Part shown: positions 2,845-28,573 of the stretch, piece after piece | Layout: each line of letters begins with the position of its first letter | How positions within the stretch are numbered: the first letter of the stretch is position 1 | Assembly: GCA_019636055.1 (NCBI GenBank) | Contig: JAHBYH010000001.1 | Coordinates: forward strand, 446,944-478,943 | Source: Candidatus Paracaedibacteraceae bacterium | GTDB taxonomy: Bacteria; Pseudomonadota; Alphaproteobacteria; Paracaedibacterales; Paracaedibacteraceae | DNA: 32,000 nt | Direction of reading: 5' to 3' | The notes under the pieces: model-generated | Told to the model about the DNA's origin: nothing | What the model saw: only the letters and a program-made list of their open reading frames with translations | The model's database searches: none | Translations under genes and position numbers: made by a program

Positions 2845-4920
2845 TTAACTAGCTTTTGCAACAATTTCATCTGCTACGTGTTGAGGAACCTGTTCATAAT
2901 GATCAAATTGCATTGTGAACTGGGCACGTCCTTGGCTCATAGAGCGCAACGTATTAACATAACCGAACATGCTTGCCAATGGCACCATCGCATTAACAAC
3001 ACGAGCATTTGCTCGTTGATCCATGCTAGAAATTTGACCACGGCGGCTGTTCAAGTCACCAATAATGTCACCCATATATTCTTCTGGGGTTACGACTTCA
3101 ACCTTCATAATCGGCTCAAGAAGACGTGGGGCACATTTACCAATACCTTCACGGAATGCTGCACGGGCAGCGATTTCGAAGGCAAGAGCGCTAGAGTCAA
3201 CATCGTGATAAGCACCATCAATCAATGTTGCCTTGAAGTCAATCAATGGGAATCCAGCGACGACACCGTTATCCATAGCGGAAACAAGACCTTTTTGAAC
3301 GCCTGGGATGTATTCTTTAGGAACAGATCCACCAACGATCTTATTTTCAAACACGAAACCGCTACCAGCTTCTAGTGGTTCAAAAACGATCTTAACGCGA
3401 CCAAACTGACCAGAACCACCAGATTGCTTTTTATGGGTATAGTCAACTTCAGCCAAACGAGTAATCGTTTCACGGTAGGCAACTTGAGGCGCGCCAACGT
3501 TAGCTTCCACTTTAAATTCACGACGCATACGGTCAACGATGATTTCCAAGTGAAGTTCACCCATTCCCTTAATAACTGTCTGACCACTTTCGATGTCAGA
3601 TGTTACGCGGAACGATGGATCTTCTGCAGCCAAACGAGACAAAGCAAGCCCCATTTTTTCTTGGTCAGCCTTTGTTTTTGGCTCAACAGCAACTTCGATA
3701 ACGGGTTCTGGAAATTCCATACGTTCCAAAATAACTGGCTTGGATTGATCGCAAAGGGTATCACCTGTTGTTGTCGCTTTAAGACCACAAACAGCAACGA
3801 TATCACCAGCAAAAGCTTCTTTAATATCTTCACGAGTATTTGCGTGCATCAAAAGCATACGACCAACGCGTTCCTTTTCATCCTTAACGGAGTTATAGAT
3901 GTAAGTACCCGTTTCAAGTTTACCAGAGTAGATACGAACGAAGGTCAAAGAACCAACGAACGGGTCTGTCATAATCTTGAATGCTAATGCTGAAAATGGA
4001 TCTGTATCTGCGATCTTGCGAACCATTTCGGTTTCACCATCAACGGACGTTCCTTTAACTTCAACCAAGTCATCAGGAGACGGAAGATAATCAACAACCG
4101 CATCCAACAACGGTTGAACACCCTTGTTCTTAAAAGCACTTCCGCATAGAACTGGAACAAACAAGCTCTTCAAAACACCCTGACGAATGGCACGCTTAAT
4201 TTCTTCGACAGAAATCTCTTCACCATTTAGGTACTTTTCCATCAAAGCGTCATCAGCTTCAACTGCTGTTTCTACGAGTTTTGCATGATATTCGTCTGCT
4301 TGATCCTTAAGATCTGCAGGGATCTCAACAACATCGAACTTTGCTCCCAAAGAGTCATCACGCCAGACGATTGCATTCATGTTGACAAGATCAACAACAC
4401 CAACGAAATCAGCTTCGGCACCGATGGGTAAATACAAAACCAATGGGCGCGCACCCAAGCGGTCAACAATCATGTCAACGCAACGGAAGAAATTTGCACC
4501 CATGCGGTCTAGCTTGTTAACAAAGCAAATACGTGGAACACCGTACTTGTCGGCTTGACGCCAGACGGTTTCAGACTGCGGTTCAACACCAGCAACACCG
4601 TCAAAAACAGTTACAGCACCGTCAAGAACGCGCAAAGAGCGTTCAACTTCGATGGTAAAGTCAACGTGGCCAGGGGTGTCGATAATATTAATGCGGTGAT
4701 CGTTCCAAAAGCAGGTCGTCGCAGCAGAGGTAATTGTAATACCACGCTCTTGTTCCTGCTCCATCCAGTCCATGACGGCTGTACCTTCATGAACTTCACC
4801 AATTTTATAGGATTTACCTGTGTAATATAGGATACGCTCGGTCGTTGTTGTTTTACCGGCGTCAATGTGAGCCATAATACCAATGTTACGGTATTTTGCT
4901 AGAGGATGGGTTCTTGCCAT
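2845..4920 (-). CDS. fusA: Elongation factor G
   Basis: 691-aa [38 protein letters not shown]...DTPGHVDF...NKLDR. Sits between rpsG and tuf. Confidence 0.98.
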
Positions 4921-5427: not shown

Positions 5428-5799
5428 TTACTTTGGACGCTTTGCACCGTATTTGGAACGTGCTTGCTTACGATCTTTAACACCTTGGGTATCCAATGTA
5501 CCACGAACAATGTGATAGCGGACACCAGGCAAGTCTTTTACACGACCACCACGGATCATAACAACAGAGTGCTCTTGCAGGTTGTGACCTTCACCAGGAA
5601 TGTATCCTGTTACTTCAAATCCATTTGTCAGACGAATACGGGCTACCTTACGAAGCGCCGAGTTAGGCTTTTTTGGAGTTGTTGTAAATACACGAGTACA
5701 AACACCACGCTTTTGAGGGCATGCCTCAAGAGCAGGAACTTTATTTCTCGAAACTTTCGGAGCACGTGGCTTCCGAATAAGTTGGTTAATTGTAGGCAT
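5428..5799 (-). CDS. rpsL: 30S ribosomal protein S12
   Basis: The ORF-track ORF 5428-5838 carries a 13-aa N-terminal extension. The conserved start [12 protein letters not shown] is the ATG at 5797-5799, preceded by AAGGGGA. The sequence [19 protein letters not shown] is canonical S12. Confidence 0.95.
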
Positions 5800-5954
5800 G
5801 AGCCTATCCCCTTTTCTTTTACCTATATTACTATTCACACTAATAAGCTTGCCTGCGCAAGGTAACCAGTGCTGTCATCAATAACTATATTGTGCTAAAT
5901 AAACAGCAAAATACAGGAACATACTGATGCCCAATAATGACACTAGTTTATTGC

Positions 5955-5983
5955 ATAATAAGCACGCTTTGCAAATATGTCAA
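5955..5983 (-). promoter_or_regulatory. Putative sigma70-type promoter of the rpsL-rpsG-fusA-tuf (str) operon
   Basis: On the minus strand, TTGACA (5978-5983) is followed by a 17-nt spacer and then TATTAT (5955-5960), about 150 nt upstream of rpsL. The -35 element lies inside a perfect 13-bp inverted repeat (5973-6002). Confidence 0.5.
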
Positions 5984-6031
5984 CGACTTCGTTGACATAT
6001 TTGAATTTAATTTCATGATTGGCATTATAGA

Positions 6032-6148
6032 AACTCTCAGAAAGGAGTAATACGGTTAATTCAAGGAAGAGGCTGCGCAAGCGTACATAAAAGCACGCGT
6101 GCAAAGCAGATATCTGTAGAATTAGCCGCAGGACCTTTTCTGAAAGTT
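6032..6148. repeat. Palindromic MITE/RPE-like repeat element, copy A
   Basis: Terminal inverted repeats are AACTCTCAGAAAGG and CCTTTTCTGAAAGTT. The interior folds into a long imperfect hairpin. By eye it is collinear with 26155-26276 at roughly three-quarters identity, sharing for example GAGGCTGCG[C/T]AAGCGTACATA and TGC(G)CAAAGC. It ends 4 nt from the rpoC stop codon. Confidence 0.75.
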
Positions 6149-6152
6149 GCCA

Positions 6153-10328
<4,176 letters not shown>

Positions 10329-10335
10329 CTAATTT

Positions 10336-13300
10336 CTATTGCTCAAAGGACATATTTAGACCAAGAGAACGAAGCTCCTTGACCAAAACGTTGAATGATT
10401 CAGGAATACCAGCTTCCATGTTATCATCGCCACGAACGATCGCTTCGTAAACCTTAGTACGGCCAGATACGTCGTCTGACTTCACGGTCAACATTTCTTG
10501 CAAGGTATAGGCGGCACCATAAGCTTCCAAAGCCCAAACTTCCATTTCACCAAAACGTTGTCCACCAAACTGCGCCTTACCACCCAACGGTTGTTGTGTG
10601 ACCAAGCTGTACGGCCCGATAGAACGAGCGTGAATCTTGTCATCAACCAAGTGGTGCAACTTAAGCATATAGATGTAACCAACAGTTGTTGGACGATCAA
10701 AACGCTCACCGGTACGACCATCAACAAGGTACTGCTGACCATTGCTTGGAATACCACTCGTATTCAGGGCACTGACGATATCATCTTCAGAAGCACCGTC
10801 GAACACTGGTGTTGCAATTGGAACACCTTTCTTCAGGTGGCGGCCAAGTTCTAGAACTTGTTCATCAGACATGGTATCGATATCTTTTGTATCCAGCTTA
10901 TCTGTATAGACTTTCTTTAGCTCAGCCTTAAGATCAGCAACCTTACCTGCATTTTGTTGAATTTTTTCAACAGCAGAGGCAATTTGCTTACTAAGGCCAG
11001 CGGCAGCTGCACCCATGTGCGTTTCCAAAATCTGACCAACGTTCATACGTGACGGAAGACCAAGCGGGTTCAAAATGATATCAAGAACGGTGCCATCTTC
11101 CAAGTGAGGCATATCTTCAAGCGGTACGATACGGGAAACAACACCCTTGTTACCGTGACGGCCAGCCATCTTGTCACCCGGTTGAATCTTACGCTTAACA
11201 GCGATAAAGACCTTGACCATCTTCAGAACACCTGGTGAAAGTTCATCACCCGCGCGGAGTTTCTCAACTTTGCCTTCGAACCATTCTTGAAGTTTAGCAA
11301 ATCCTTCATCCAAGTGACGCTTCATGGCTTCAACTTTGGACATCACATCATCGTTATCAACAGTTAGTTGCTTCCATTGATGCTGAGGAATTTCTGTTAA
11401 GATAGCTTCGTTAACCACAACACCTGTTTTGATCCCTTTAGGGGCAGATGTCAGTTTATGACCAGCAAGCATTTCTTCAAGGTTTTTATAGAAGTTGCGT
11501 TCCAAAATTGCTTTTTCAGCATCACGGTCTTTTGCCAGACGTTCAATTTCTTGGCGTTCAATCGTCAGTGCACGTTCGTCTTTATCAACACCACGACGTG
11601 AGAACACGCGAACGTCAACGATGGTACCAGAAATTCCAGGTGGAACACGCAAAGACGTATCACGAACATCAGACGCTTTTTCACCAAAGATCGCACGAAG
11701 CAATTTTTCTTCCGGTGTCATCGGGGACTCACCCTTTGGTGTCACTTTACCAACAAGAATGTCGCCCGCTTTGACTTCAGCTCCGATATAGATAATACCA
11801 GCTTCGTCAAGGTTACGAAGTGCTTCTTCACCCACGTTTGGAATATCGCGTGTGATTTCTTCGTTCCCCAATTTGGTATCACGAGACATTACTTCGAATT
11901 CTTCGATGTGGATAGATGTAAAGACGTCATCCTGAGCAATCCGTTCGGACAAGATAATAGAGTCTTCGAAGTTATACCCTTGCCAAGACATAAATCCAAC
12001 AAGAACGTTGCGACCCAAAGCGAGTTCACCAAGTTCGGTTGCAGGGCCATCCGCAATCACGTCACCTTTTTTAACCAAGTCACCCTTTTGAACAAGTGGC
12101 TTTTGGTTAATACAAGTGCTCATGTTTGAGCGTTGGAATTTATGCAAGTTGTAAATATCAACACCAACAGAATCATCGCCTTCTTGACGATCTGTTGCAC
12201 GAACAACAACACGGCGGCCATCAACACTGTCAACGATACCTGTGCGACGCGCAAGAACACACGCACCAGAGTCTTGTGCAACGGTTGCTTCCATACCTGT
12301 ACCAACAAGTGGCGCTTCACTACGCAACAATGGAACTGCCTGACGTTGCATGTTTGATCCCATCAATGCACGGTTCGCGTCGTCGTTTTCCAAGAACGGA
12401 ATCAAAGAAGCCGCAACAGAAACCAACTGCTTAGGTGAAACGTCACATAATGTAATATCATCCTTAGGCAAAATAACGAATTCACCCTGCTGACGGCAGG
12501 TAACCAAATCGTCAACAATGCTACCGTCTTTTGCCAAAGCAATATTCGCCTGCGCAATAATATGCTTAGATTCTTCCATAGCTGTTAGGTACACAATTTC
12601 ATTGGTAACTTTACCATCTTTAACCTTACGATACGGACTTTCAATAAAGCCGTACTGGTTAACACGGGCGTATGTTGCAAGTGAGTTAATCAAACCAATG
12701 TTTTGTCCTTCAGGTGTTTCAATCGGGCAAATACGACCATAGTGAGTTGGGTGAACGTCTCGGACTTCGAATCCAGCACGATCACGGGTCAAACCACCAG
12801 GCCCCAAGGCTGACAAACGACGCTTGTGTGTAATTTCAGACAATGGGTTTGTTTGATCCATAAATTGAGACAATTGAGATGACCCAAAGAACTCACGAAC
12901 AACCGCCGCTGCCGGCTTCGCATTAATGAGATCATGCGGCATAACTGTGTCGATTTCGACAGAGCTCATGCGTTCTTTGATTGCACGTTCCATACGGCTA
13001 AGGCCAACACGGTATTGGTTTTCCAACAATTCACCAACAGCACGAACACGGCGGTTACCTAAGTTATCGATATCATCAACTTCACCGCGACCATCTTTAA
13101 GTTCCAAAAGCATCTTAAGGATCGCAACAATGTCTTCTTTACGGATTGTACGAATGGTATCTGGACACTTCACATCAATACGGGAGTTCATCTTGACACG
13201 ACCAACAGCGGACAGATCATATTTATCTGCTTCGAAGAACAGGCCGCTGAATAAGGATTCTGCACCTTCCAAGGTCGGTGGTTCACCCGGACGCATAACG

Positions 13301-14505
13301 CGATAAATTTCGAACAATGCTTCTTCACGATTGTTAATTTTATCTGCGTTCAAAGAGTTAACCAAATAAGCACCAACATTCACGTGATCGATTGAGAGAA
13401 CCGGAATTTCTTTAAGATTTGCATTTGTTTCCAAAGCTGCAATTGTCTTAAGTGTTAGCTCGTCCCCTGCTTCTGCATAAATTTCACCGGTTGTTTCATT
13501 GATGAATTCTTTTGCCAGATATAAACCTTCAAGATTTTCAGTGGCGACAAGAATATCTTTTAAACCATCAGCAGCAAGTTTCTTTGCCATGCGAGGCGTA
13601 ATCTTTGTACCGGCTTCGGCAACAACAGCTCCTGTGGCAGCATCAACCAAATCAGATGTTAACTTAACACCGCGCCAATTTTCTGCAACATACGCTGTCT
13701 TCCAGCCTTTTTTGTGTTTTGTATACGTGACTGTTGCATAGAAGGAGTTCAAAATTTCTTCGCGTGACATCCCTGTAATTTGGCTTGCAGGCAATGCTTC
13801 ACCTTTTTCACCTGCTTTTGCACGCAAGACAGCTGTTTCAGCCGAATCAAGCGCCATCAAGAATGCAGTAATCGGAAGTTTGCGTCGGCGGTCAATACGA
13901 ACATGAACCAAGTCTTTTGGATCAAATTCAAAGTCCAACCATGAACCACGATATGGCACAACACGAGCAGCAAACAAATACTTACCGGAAGAATGACTTT
14001 TACCTTTGTCATGATCAAAAAACACGCCAGGACTACGGTGCATTTGAGACACGATAACACGCTCAACACCATTGATGATGAACGTTCCATTGTCTGTCAT
14101 AAGAGGCATATCCCCCATATAGACTTCTTGTTCTTTGATGTCGCGAATTGATTTTGCACCCGTATCTTCGTCGATATCCCAAACGACTAAGCGTAGAGTC
14201 AATTTCAGAGGGGCAGCAAAAGTCAAACCACGCTGACGGCATTCTTCTTCGTCATACTTAGGCTTGTCAAAGTCGTACTTAAAATATTCCAATTGTGATT
14301 TACCTGAGAAATCGGTGATTGGAAACGTTGATTTAAATACTTCATGAAGACCAATATCTTCACGCTTATTATAAGTCGTGGATTGTTGCAAAAATTTGTC
14401 ATAGGATGACTTTTGCAATTCAATCAGGTTTGGCATTTTGGCTTCGTCGGAGATACGACCAAAGTTTTTACGAAATCTCTTCATTCCGGTAAAAGATCTT
14501 ACCAT
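10336..14505 (-). CDS. rpoB: DNA-directed RNA polymerase subunit beta
   Basis: The ORF-track ORF starts at a TTG at 14523. The ATG at 14503-14505 ([16 protein letters not shown]) is preceded by AGAGGGA with a 5-nt spacer and matches the conserved RpoB N-terminus. Confidence 0.96.
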
Positions 14506-14632
14506 TGATTCCCTCTTTAACAAGTCTATTAAAAATTAGTTGTCTTTTGTTTCATGTCATTTAGTAAACTCAGTTGCCCTTGATACAGTTAATTTGTAGC
14601 AACGTCAAATGAATAAACTATAGAAACGACCA

Positions 14633-26072: not shown

Positions 26073-26154
26073 AAAATATTCCTAATTATGATGCTTTGTG
26101 TTCCCCCTCAAGGAGAAAGGTGAAAATATATGAGGTCTAGTCGTTAGTTCCCCA

Positions 26155-26276
26155 GCAAATCTCAGAAATAAGTAATGCGGATGAATTTACGAACGAGGCT
26201 GCGTAAGCGTACATATAGTACGTGCGCAAAGCCGAAGTTTCGTAAAATTCGCCGTAGGACTATTTCTGAGATTTGC
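26155..26276. repeat. Palindromic MITE/RPE-like repeat element, copy B
   Basis: Terminal inverted repeats are GCAAATCTCAGAAATA and TATTTCTGAGATTTGC, with a central CGTAC-ATATA-GTACG. It is collinear with copy A (6032-6148) and ends 2 nt from the vgrG stop codon. Confidence 0.75.
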
Positions 26277-26278
26277 GC

Positions 26279-28573
26279 TTAGTTGATCTGAACCATACTC
26301 CCCTTAACCTGTGTCAACGTACTTGAACTACCGATCTTAACTTTACCATTTCCTGTGACTTCCATATCAGGACCACCGTCAAATTTACCTTTTGTTTGCC
26401 CCGTTAATTTAACTTCATTCCCGTCTCCTGTAAAATCACCCGTTGCATCAATTTTTGTATCTCCTGTCGATTGAAGCTTAATATCGCCATCAGCTGTCAA
26501 TTTCATATCCCCGCCAGCCTTTAACTCTAGGTCATCATCTGTTGATATAGAAAGAGCACCTGTTACTTTAATAGTCAAAGCCCCTGAAACTGTTAATTCA
26601 TAGTCTCCTGTAACCGTATGCGAAAAGTTAGCACTATTTTCATGAGATTCAGCTTCAACAACAGTAATATTACGCTTTCCAACAACATTTAATGTTTGGT
26701 CTCCCTGATCTAATTTAGTGGTCATACTCCCTTGAGTTAAGGTGATTTCCATATCCCCCTTAGTCAGAGTTATTGACTTATTGCCTTCATCCAACTGAGT
26801 AACCATATTTCCTTTAGTTATTTCAATTGTATTATCACCCTTCGTCATCTTAAGCGTATGGTCACCTTGTTTATCACCCTCTGCTTTAAGCTCAACAAGA
26901 CGGCAACCCTTATTTAAAGTCAACGTGTCACTACCAATCCCTTTACCGGATTCTTTATCCTTTTTAGCAGTCTCGCCATGTAAAGTCACCGTACGATCAC
27001 CCACCATAATGTCTGACGTATCATCGCCATCATTAATCTTAAGAGTTCGATTATCTTCAACAACCGTATTCATGTCTTTTTGGGCATGAATATAAATTTC
27101 CTCTTCGTCTTTCTTATCCTCGAACCGGAACTCATTATTACCGCCGCCACCTTTGGTTGTATTAGATAGGATCGTACTCTTTGTTGGCTCGTCTTTAGCA
27201 TAAGGCGGCATATTATCACTATTATAGACGCAGCCCGTTACCAACGGGCGGTCTGGGTCTCCTTCAAGAAAGGTAACAACCACTTCCATACCAATTCGCG
27301 GTGTCCATAATCCCCCCCAACCACTGCCAGCCCAAAGTTGTGCAACGCGAATCCAGCAAGAGCTTTTTTCATCGTCACTGCCCTTTTGATCCCAGTGAAA
27401 TTTAACTTTAATACGCCCATACTCATCACACCAAATTTCCTCACCTGACTTCCCTGTAACTCTGGCCGTCTGGGTTGAGGCAATCGTCGGTTTGGGCGTA
27501 ATAATTGGCGCTCTAAAAGGAACATCTGCCGGAAATGCTTCAAATGTATTGGAGTAAAGACGCTCCTCCCCTGTTGCGAGTAAATTTATTTCATGGGTAA
27601 CCTTATAAACAATATAGTCCTTATTCAAATCATCCCGAGGATGGTTTGTAACCGTAAATGTTTTCATCGGCGCTAATAACGGTGCGGAAGACTGCCCGGA
27701 TATCATTTCTTTGCGCCACTCTAATTCTTGAATCCGATTTGTTGAGTAACCATCACCCGTTCCCCCGTCAGGATAATATCCGGGGAATCGATAAACCTCT
27801 AAGCCTTCACCTTCTCCTGAGGCATTGCTCAGCAATTTCGTCGACGCCGTCTCAAAGTTATAATCTGCTGTTTGAAATTTTTTACTGACGACTTGTTTAG
27901 CATAACGCAAAAATTGAATTTCATCATACCAAGGATCACGGTCACTAAAAGGCGTCATTGGCAATGCAGAATAAGCAGTCTCAGCTGTTGATGAATCATC
28001 ACAAATAACCATTTCTTCACCACTGGCAGAATGGTCAAAGTAATAGGAAATACCTTCTGCCTCAAAGAGACGAGAAATGAAATCGAAATAACTTTCTCTG
28101 TACTGGACACAATATTCATATGGCGATTGCCCACAGGACGAGGTTTGATCTTTTTTCTTTGTAACCCCATATTGTCCCAAAAGATCATTAACAATATCCA
28201 TAGCAGATTTTTCTTGAAAGATTTGATGATCTTGGCTGAATTTTAATACCCAAAATTTTGGGTATAACGTTGCATAGTACTTTGTTAATTCAACATTATT
28301 TCCCGCATTATCAATATCGACGGTAAAGCCTTGCGAGACCTCACCAACAATCCCTGCAAAATACCGCGTTTCTGAGCCATATTTGAATGCAACTTTAATT
28401 TCTTTACCAACAAGATCATCAAGAGCTAAATCAAGTTTTTTGGAGTGCATCTCGAGATGGATTTCAAACGGCATCGAAATGCCCTCAACACATCTTAACT
28501 TATCAATAATCAGCGTATCCGGACCTAATGGTGTCGTGACTGTTAAGTTAAGATCAGAGTGCTTGATATACAT
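26279..28573 (-). CDS. vgrG: Type VI secretion system spike protein VgrG (no C-terminal effector domain)
   Basis: It has a gp27-like N-terminal part, a gp5 OB-fold hallmark (VVVTFLEGDPDRPLVTGCVYN) and a C-terminal beta-helix of short repeats (TLTKGDMEITLTQGSMTTKLDQGDQTL...). The ORF track starts at 28594. The ATG at 28573 (MYIKHSDLNLTVTTPLGPDTLII, preceded by GGGGGA) fits conserved VgrG N-termini better. Confidence 0.88.
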   Translation of the reverse strand: MYIKHSDLNLTVTTPLGPDTLIIDKLRCVEGISMPFEIHLEMHSKKLDLALDDLVGKEIKVAFKYGSETRYFAGIVGEVSQGFTVDIDNAGNNVELTKYYATLYPKFWVLKFSQDHQIFQEKSAMDIVNDLLGQYGVTKKKDQTSSCGQSPYEYCVQYRESYFDFISRLFEAEGISYYFDHSASGEEMVICDDSSTAETAYSALPMTPFSDRDPWYDEIQFLRYAKQVVSKKFQTADYNFETASTKLLSNASGEGEGLEVYRFPGYYPDGGTGDGYSTNRIQELEWRKEMISGQSSAPLLAPMKTFTVTNHPRDDLNKDYIVYKVTHEINLLATGEERLYSNTFEAFPADVPFRAPIITPKPTIASTQTARVTGKSGEEIWCDEYGRIKVKFHWDQKGSDDEKSSCWIRVAQLWAGSGWGGLWTPRIGMEVVVTFLEGDPDRPLVTGCVYNSDNMPPYAKDEPTKSTILSNTTKGGGGNNEFRFEDKKDEEEIYIHAQKDMNTVVEDNRTLKINDGDDTSDIMVGDRTVTLHGETAKKDKESGKGIGSDTLTLNKGCRLVELKAEGDKQGDHTLKMTKGDNTIEITKGNMVTQLDEGNKSITLTKGDMEITLTQGSMTTKLDQGDQTLNVVGKRNITVVEAESHENSANFSHTVTGDYELTVSGALTIKVTGALSISTDDDLELKAGGDMKLTADGDIKLQSTGDTKIDATGDFTGDGNEVKLTGQTKGKFDGGPDMEVTGNGKVKIGSSSTLTQVKGSMVQIN

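Follow-up and report, generated by a model that had tools for sequence, protein, structure and literature searches.

The structured segment between rpoC and the str-operon promoter is very probably one copy of a family of palindromic, non-coding, and non-autonomous MITEs of ~131 bp, and its presence at rpoC is lineage-specific. The odd sequence at this gene junction, which ranks among the most conserved in bacteria, would thus be explained as a lineage-specific mobile-element insertion. The family is an ordinary kind of selfish DNA but appears to be new to description; no description of it was found by full-text search, and nothing matching it occurred in a review of MITEs (PMC10969869). The window, i.e., the whole 32,000-nucleotide stretch of DNA that was analysed, belongs to a genome of 1.73 Mb (G000) with 41.7% G+C, which is assembled in five contigs and is 99.99% complete. 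The rpoC of G000 grouped with Alphaproteobacteria, and its best named matches were only ~70% identical. The genomes compared most closely with it are three members of the same genus (G001, G002, and G003) and the closest relative, G004, which showed 78-85% nucleotide identity in flanking genes.

The minus strand of the window contained rpoB and rpoC, followed by rpsL, rpsG, fusA, and tuf. The segment after rpoC (copy A) is located ~40 nt upstream of the TTGACA-17-TATTAT str promoter (5983-5955), and a second copy (copy B) is present in the same window. The features referred to below are as follows:

5428-5799, minus strand: rpsL, which opens the str operon (Pfam Ribosom_S12_S23), starting at the conserved ATG
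5955-5983, minus strand: str-operon (rpsL) promoter TTGACA-17-TATTAT, 11/12 matches, conserved in G001-G003 and G006
6008-6024, plus strand: AATTTCATGATTGGCA, a stub resembling the right end of another copy, most of which is deleted, at the site in G000 only
6025-6027, plus strand: TTA, the left copy of the 3-bp target duplication according to the family consensus and the empty site, reading TAA on the rpoC-sense strand
6028-6152, plus strand: body of copy A of the probable MITE, a 125-nt imperfect palindrome with the ends TAGAAACTCTCAGAAAGG... and ...CCTTTTCTGAAAGTTGCCA
6153-6155, minus strand: rpoC stop codon TAG, occupying the right target-duplication position, where relatives carry TAA
6153-10313, minus strand: rpoC, the gene 5' of copy A, an open reading frame with Pfam RNA_pol_Rpb1 domains 1-5
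10336-14523, minus strand: rpoB, from the list of open reading frames
26150-26281, plus strand: copy B of the probable MITE, the top match to the family model R1 (139.1 bits)

The covariance model R1, which was built from an alignment of the 13 full-length copies in G000, placed copy A at 6025-6155 (131 nt, 120.3 bits), with its plus strand in the model orientation and therefore antisense to rpoC. The copy is flanked by TTA (6025-6027) and CTA (6153-6155), and the latter is the TAG stop codon of rpoC. The sequence-only reading had described a segment at 6032-6148 with a second copy at 26155-26276; both sequences matched their description and lie on the plus strand in the same orientation. It was correct in placing the segment directly after rpoC, whereas the start that it gave, 4 nt after the TAG, has to be moved, as the unit abuts the stop codon. 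The identity of roughly three-quarters estimated by eye agrees with the alignments of copy A and copy B, which gave 76.5% over 119 nt (BLASTN within the genome, E = 6.5e-18) and a mean column identity of 83% across the region common to both (MAFFT). The final 3 nt of copy B (26279-26281, TTA) form the TAA stop codon of a minus-strand vgrG-like gene (Pfam Phage_GPD/Gp5). The extensive self-complementarity reported for both copies was also evident from predicted RNA folding. The rpoC-sense strand of copy A reached -50.1 kcal/mol, compared with -28.3 +/- 3.4 for shuffled sequences (z = -6.5; 0/200 were as good), and copy B reached -49.7 kcal/mol (z = -5.8). No terminator-like site and no U-tract were detected within either copy, the predicted stem being followed by UUUCUAUAAU with no run of U, and no shared internal promoter or terminator was detected.

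The stub at 6008-6024 is joined to copy A through 3 shared nucleotides, which results in a junction of the type right end - 3 bp - left end. The same arrangement of a right-end stub and 3 nt was found beside a family copy in G194 (locus L208). Such a junction would fit a tandem insertion into a regenerated target, or a circle or dimer junction.

The earlier claim of a dispersed repeat depended on the existence of further copies in the genome, and iterated nhmmer recovered 19 loci in G000, of which 13 were full-length (~131 bp); R1 gave 17 matches in the same genome. Together with the empty sites in relatives and the 3-bp target duplication described below, this bears out the claim that the segment is a dispersed non-autonomous repeat and not a locus-specific sequence. 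The consensus of the 13 full-length copies was TTA TACCAATTATCAGAAATAAGTAATACGGATGAATTCAAGGACGAGGCTGCGCAAGCGTACATA.AGTA.GTGCGCAAAGCCGATGTTCCGCAGAATTCGCCGTAGGAC.TATTTCT.ATAATTG.TA TTA, and the mean pairwise identity of family copies was 69% (range 60-80%). Each unit is bounded by the terminal inverted repeats TACCAA...TTGGTA and contains two conserved parts, an inner box (TCAGAAATAAGT) and a central core (GAGGCTGCG-AAGCGTAC...GTACGTGCGCAAAGCC); arm-to-arm alignments and the consensus extended the terminal inverted repeats to TACCAATTATCAGAAATAAGT... / ...ACTTATTTCTGATAATTGGTA. All 19 copies in G000 were intergenic. The segment had been judged to lack coding capacity, and indeed no frame was consistently open across 27 copies and no peptide was conserved. 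In Rfam, nothing in the window reached the gathering threshold, and nothing credible appeared at E <= 10 over copy A or copy B.

Full-length members of the family were also present in other genomes of the same order, namely G004 (one), G001 (three), G031 (two), and G013 (one), as well as in two genomes of the class that belong to other families, G194 (at least five) and G186 (four). On the other hand, neither G002 and G003 nor the remaining 148 sampled genera of the class contained a family match. This patchy occurrence in six other alphaproteobacterial genomes, including those of unrelated families, points to horizontal spread. A plasmid search gave no match. A search of metagenomes returned no matches with a strict pattern and eight with a looser pattern, none of which were family members according to the model. 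The family provides comparison markers for small, probably host-associated alphaproteobacterial genomes.

Beyond the 19 loci, G000 harbored derivatives that consist of the terminal inverted repeats only or are internally deleted, in the form of 40-55-nt mini-hairpins or solo ends (C2:40599, C1:505916, C2:317965, C2:379215, and C1:659636). One copy (C1:649131-649263, L101) is immediately adjacent to the 3' end of rnpB, which encodes the RNase P RNA, and the orthologous region of G004 contained a different, duplicated insert. Another (C1:226358-226488, L105) is located within the groES-groEL operon, after the groES TAA and ahead of the groEL ribosome-binding site, where G004 has a 21-nt spacer only. 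G194 contained a second palindromic MITE family of 103 nt (L212-L219; examples are L214, ~2900-3010, L215, L216, and L219) that shares the TACCAA...TTGGTA ends and is likewise flanked by 3-bp duplications. Eight copies of this sister family were examined, and in four of them a tRNA gene begins 5-15 nt downstream of the end of the copy.

The rpoC-rpsL junction of all three congeners lacks the element and reads ...GCG TAA ATATAGCAACAAGTCG TTGACA -17- TATTAT..., with 16 nt between the rpoC TAA and the -35 box. The corresponding junction of G000 reads ...ATG TAG [element] TAA TGCCAATCATGAAATTAAATTC AAATATGTCAACGAAGTCG TTGACA..., so that one stop-like triplet in the empty site corresponds to two in the occupied site. 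Neither the str promoter nor the length of the RpoC C-terminus was changed by copy A; RpoC ends in ...SSNYM* in G000 and in ...TSTYA* in relatives, with the same length despite the insertion. In G004, the flanks from rpsL, rpsG, and rpoC found no match in the assembly (97% complete), from which the rpoBC-str region is missing or withheld. The same genome contained short, element-free sites orthologous to copy B, to the groES-groEL copy, and to the copies at C1_259505, C4_60344, C1_234538, C1_374674, and C2_146629. Its single family copy has a TAA stop codon on one side and an intrinsic terminator on the other, and the orthologous site in G000 is empty. Because the congener sites are empty and G004 lacks most of the copies of G000 while having one of its own (19 loci in G000 vs. 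one in G004, three in G001, and none in G002 and G003), copy A is an insertion and not a locus-specific signal. The sites of C2_282250 and C1_582206 in G004 held apparent decayed remnants of the element, which suggests that some insertions predate the split between G000 and G004. It was also considered whether the outer stem is copied from the target, as some empty sites resemble element ends (C2_282250 and C1_259505); decayed remnants of the element or chance provide a better explanation of these resemblances.

The str promoter region of G000 has a palindrome of its own. This is a perfect palindrome with 14-bp arms (5972-6003) that contains the -35 hexamer, and TTGACA is thus also present on the plus strand, where TTGACA-16-CATGAT (5992-6019) forms a weak promoter-like site directed into copy A. 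In the congeners, the arms of this palindrome match less well.

The family consensus can be written as TTA TACCAA...TTGGTA TTA, in which TACCAA...TTGGTA is a perfect palindrome and the flanking TTA is a direct, not an inverted, repeat. Perfect 3-bp direct repeats (TTA, TCA, or TAA) were found at nine of the ~26 full copies, i.e., at three of the 13 in G000 and at six more in G001, G186, and G013. The presence of TCA/TCA pairs rules out a simple extension of the inverted repeat. The 103-nt sister family in G194 has the structure TACCAA-NNN-CCA...TGG-NNN-TTGGTA, and five of its eight copies had perfect repeats (TTA, TAA, ATA, TTA, and TCA). One TAA in the empty site was matched by two T-A-R triplets in the occupied site at rpoC, at C4_60344, at groES, and at the G004 copy. 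Many older copies showed a degenerate duplication, and several had no clean one, including the left side of copy B.

The terminal triplet was the stop codon of the upstream gene in seven copies, four of which are in G000 (rpoC, vgrG, groES, and one more) and one each in G004, G001, and G194. This follows from the T-N-A target, as an insertion into a TAA rebuilds the stop codon. The preference for sites immediately 3' of stop codons that the sequence-only reading had raised was therefore seen, but it did not amount to an enrichment. Four such copies were observed in G000 and 3.4 were expected from the T-N-A sites of reconstructed pre-insertion intergenic regions, and special targeting of stop codons was rejected. 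Compact intergenic regions, together with selection against insertions into genes or promoters, are enough to account for this frequency.

The family shows the usual features of MITEs, i.e., non-coding units of less than ~300 bp, terminal inverted repeats, a target duplication, and dispersed copies with presence/absence polymorphism; the one feature that it lacks is a related autonomous IS with matching ends. Many described MITE families likewise have no known partner, and membership is not excluded by this lack. None of the genomes examined yielded an autonomous partner that ends in TACCAA. Searches of G000 for Y1_Tnp (PF01797), rve, DDE_Tnp_1, and DDE_Tnp_1_2 gave no matches, and PF01797 was found in six of 14 control genomes by the same search; rve was also absent from G194 and G186. 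The sole recognisable IS or transposase type in G000 according to self-BLAST was of the IS630 family, which has unrelated ends and a TA duplication. It is represented by two 99.9%-identical copies of 913 bp (C1:695366-696278 and C3:93011-93924) and a partial third copy (C1:245080-245606). This IS contains two frames (HTH plus DDE) and is bounded by inverted repeats of 30 bp (TATAGTCAAAACAAAATAAA...). IS5-type elements in G001, G186, and G194 were considered as partners and rejected, as they have other ends and a TACCAA close to one of them is coding sequence. Because no matching transposase or autonomous element was found, the copies in G000 are probably immobile relics. A 3-bp target duplication is typical of DDE cut-and-paste or copy-and-paste transposition and not of single-strand transposition.

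Of the labels that the sequence-only reading had offered, MITE holds, whereas the REP-type label does not, as the length of the unit exceeds that of REPs, its target is duplicated, and G000 has no Y1/RAYT transposase. The label RPE-like fits only loosely, since no in-frame coding insertions were seen. In RPE (Rickettsia palindromic elements), insertions are in frame within protein genes and carry a conserved peptide (PMC10969869). Both RPE and the present family are palindromic, measure 100-150 bp, and occur in small alphaproteobacterial genomes, but all 19 copies in G000 are intergenic and have no conserved frame, and the family is set apart from RPE by description. CIR, also from alphaproteobacteria, is a repeat that occurs strictly between genes and contains an inverted repeat (PMC10969869). 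It is defined by conserved GANTC methylation sites, whereas GANTC (..GGATTC..) is present in some copies of the family only; the two were compared by description, and a class-wide search with the family model gave no further carriers. In its primary paper, CIR is reportedly ~110-120 bp long.

Similar elements are known from other classes. ERIC (enterobacterial repetitive intergenic consensus) sequences are imperfect palindromes of ~127 bp that are intergenic, often in transcribed 3' regions, and number tens per genome; occupied and empty sites between relatives and orientation-dependent effects on upstream mRNAs have been reported (PMC10969869). The present family resembles ERIC in length, palindromic structure, intergenic sites, copy number, and presence/absence, but it shares no sequence similarity with ERIC, occurs in a different host class, and has TACCAA...TTGGTA ends and a 3-bp T-N-A duplication. 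The Correia elements (CREE/NEMIS) of Neisseria are MITEs of 100-150 bp with long terminal inverted repeats and a TA-containing duplication, which are co-transcribed with neighbouring genes and form hairpins that are cleaved by RNase III (PMC10969869). In contrast, the present family has a 3-bp and not a TA duplication, a far lower copy number, an unrelated sequence, and no detectable promoters or IHF site. QMITE2 of Coxiella burnetii is a MITE of an intracellular bacterium that is mainly located in the 3' untranslated regions of ORFs (PMC10969869; see also PMC5896051). It differs from the present family, with which it was compared by description, in its reported 7-9-bp direct repeats and its gammaproteobacterial host, and no sequence relation between the two is expected. 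An identity with the Coxiella QMITE was dropped because rpoC shows that the genome is alphaproteobacterial.

Three regularities of the family, i.e., covariation, strand asymmetry, and orientation bias, are beyond what a plain dead MITE predicts. Among the 13 full-length G000 copies, 89.6% of cells were paired, compared with 82.3 +/- 0.8% in shuffles and ~40% with slid partners, and 19 of the 37 pairs contained double changes, compared with 9.0 +/- 2.0 in shuffles. Across 27 copies from seven genomes, many paired positions had three or four Watson-Crick pair types. The outermost helix just inside TACCAA was the most variable part, yet it was complementary within each copy; positions 7-10 of the inverted repeat varied between copies, and seven of the eight outer-helix pairs showed double changes. 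With regard to strands, paired positions in the model orientation included 103 G-U and 30 A-C combinations (81 and 30 after removal of one fixed U-G pair). The model strand was more stable than its complement in 23 of the 27 copies (mean -43.2 vs. -36.3 kcal/mol), copy A being one of the four exceptions. In co-directional intergenic regions, 10 of 12 copies in G000 and four of six elsewhere had their model strand antisense to the gene upstream (14:4, two-sided binomial p ~0.03), and all seven stop-abutting copies had the same end toward the stop codon (p ~0.016). An orientation set by replication was rejected, as the ratio with respect to GC skew was 12:6 and two copies beside lagging-strand genes follow transcription. 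These statistics are to be taken as leads, as the numbers are small and the copies share ancestry, which inflates the strand statistics in particular. The regularities could arise if mRNAs that carry the hairpin in its more stable orientation are selected against, if the RNA has a role for the host, if the arms of palindromes correct each other, or if mobilisation includes a strand-specific step. They offer a small test case for whether such fossil palindromes are selected as RNA, as DNA, or by way of arm-to-arm correction.

The MITE reading has to be weighed against several explanations, some of which are compatible with it. Against it stand the failure to find an autonomous TACCAA-ended partner, with the transposase family judged from the length of the duplication alone, and the copies that lack a clean duplication. 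Extreme termini are usually the best-conserved part of MITEs, and variation at inverted-repeat positions 7-10 with complementarity retained is unexpected for a plain dead MITE; likewise, 89.6% pairing at only 69% identity and a stability bias in 23 of 27 copies hint at a constraint on a single-stranded form. One explanation, compatible with an origin as a MITE, is that the host exploits the hairpin as an RNA module, in which it is selected as a 3' stem, an RNase III/E site, or an insulator between rpoBC and the str operon. The very stable predicted hairpins of copies A and B, the strong compensatory covariation, and the non-random orientation (14:4, and 7/7 at stop codons) agree with such a role; moreover, the groES-groEL copy and the G004 copy between a stop codon and a terminator should be transcribed, and ERIC and Correia provide precedents (PMC10969869). 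However, the better-folding strand that bears G-U pairs is usually antisense to the upstream gene, so that the sense mRNA would carry the less stable of the two hairpins, the element is missing from relatives at rpoC, at groES, and elsewhere, there is no U-tract, and covariation could stem from diverged source copies and not from selection after insertion. Selection of the hairpin by the host is rather unlikely. A strand-specific single-stranded form, in which the model strand is constrained as an antisense small RNA or as a hairpin for mobilisation of single-stranded DNA, is improbable. It draws on the excess of G-U over A-C (103 vs. 30), the higher stability of the model strand, and the promoter-like plus-strand site that is directed into copy A, but G000 has no Y1/HUH transposase, the 3-bp duplication is typical of DDE enzymes, and no shared internal promoter or terminator was detected. 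In addition, the orientation was 12:6 relative to replication with both informative copies following transcription, and shared ancestry weighs on the strand statistics.

A broader possibility is that the hairpin is under continuing single-strand constraint, usually on the strand antisense to the upstream gene, through Y1-free, strand-specific, and hairpin-dependent movement or through element-borne RNAs. This is doubtful. In the latter case, several unrelated alphaproteobacteria with small genomes would have antisense or structural RNAs at stop codons and operon junctions (rpoC-rpsL, groES-groEL, and the 3' end of rnpB). If the possibility is true, the 7/7 orientation at stop codons would mean function and not chance. 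A REP/REPIN-type element moved by a RAYT (Y1) transposase is very improbable. The family does consist of extragenic palindromes that form a long hairpin, one arm of which has a conserved GTAG (..CCGTAGGAC..), but Y1_Tnp was absent from the nearly complete genome in a search that was positive in six control genomes, and a single 131-bp palindrome with terminal inverted repeats and target duplications is not a doublet of 20-40-nt REP units. A locus-specific regulator of the rpoBC/str junction, such as a terminator, attenuator, or operator, is hardly credible, even though copy A lies between two essential operons and a separate perfect palindrome nearby embeds the -35 box; the 19 dispersed copies, the absence of the element in three congeners with a conserved promoter, and the lack of terminator features all speak against it.

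The MITE reading suggests the following course of events. The empty sites indicate that copy A entered the TAA stop codon of rpoC in the G000 lineage only. The duplication regenerated the stop codon, which left rpoC unchanged, and the downstream str promoter remained intact; a T-N-A duplication that rebuilds the stop while the promoter is kept thus provides a route to a harmless insertion. The element may have been mobilised in trans by a DDE-type transposase making 3-bp duplications, to judge from the duplication length. This transposase would no longer be encoded in G000, and the 19 copies would be fossils of an old burst. At present, a polymerase leaving rpoC would transcribe a 125-nt hairpin on its way to the str promoter region, and the junction in the congeners would leave no room for a terminator. 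A direct role of copy A as a terminator or promoter is unlikely because it lacks a U-tract, and neither terminator-like features nor shared promoter-like ones were detected. The hairpin could possibly act at most as a processing site or as a structure that protects the 3' end, as is documented for ERIC and Correia elements (PMC10969869), and the effect of copy A at this locus is probably near neutral.

Two further observations concern the same region. The rpsL 5' leader contained a second insert of ~63 nt that is specific to G000 (5878-5940), located between the -10 box and the conserved leader. No other copy of it was found in G000, and its promoter-proximal end (TCATTATTGGGCA TCA, minus strand) resembles the right end of the family. 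The window also contained two tuf genes (1623-2813 and 18085-19275), which were 99.7% identical over 1193 nt in self-BLAST.
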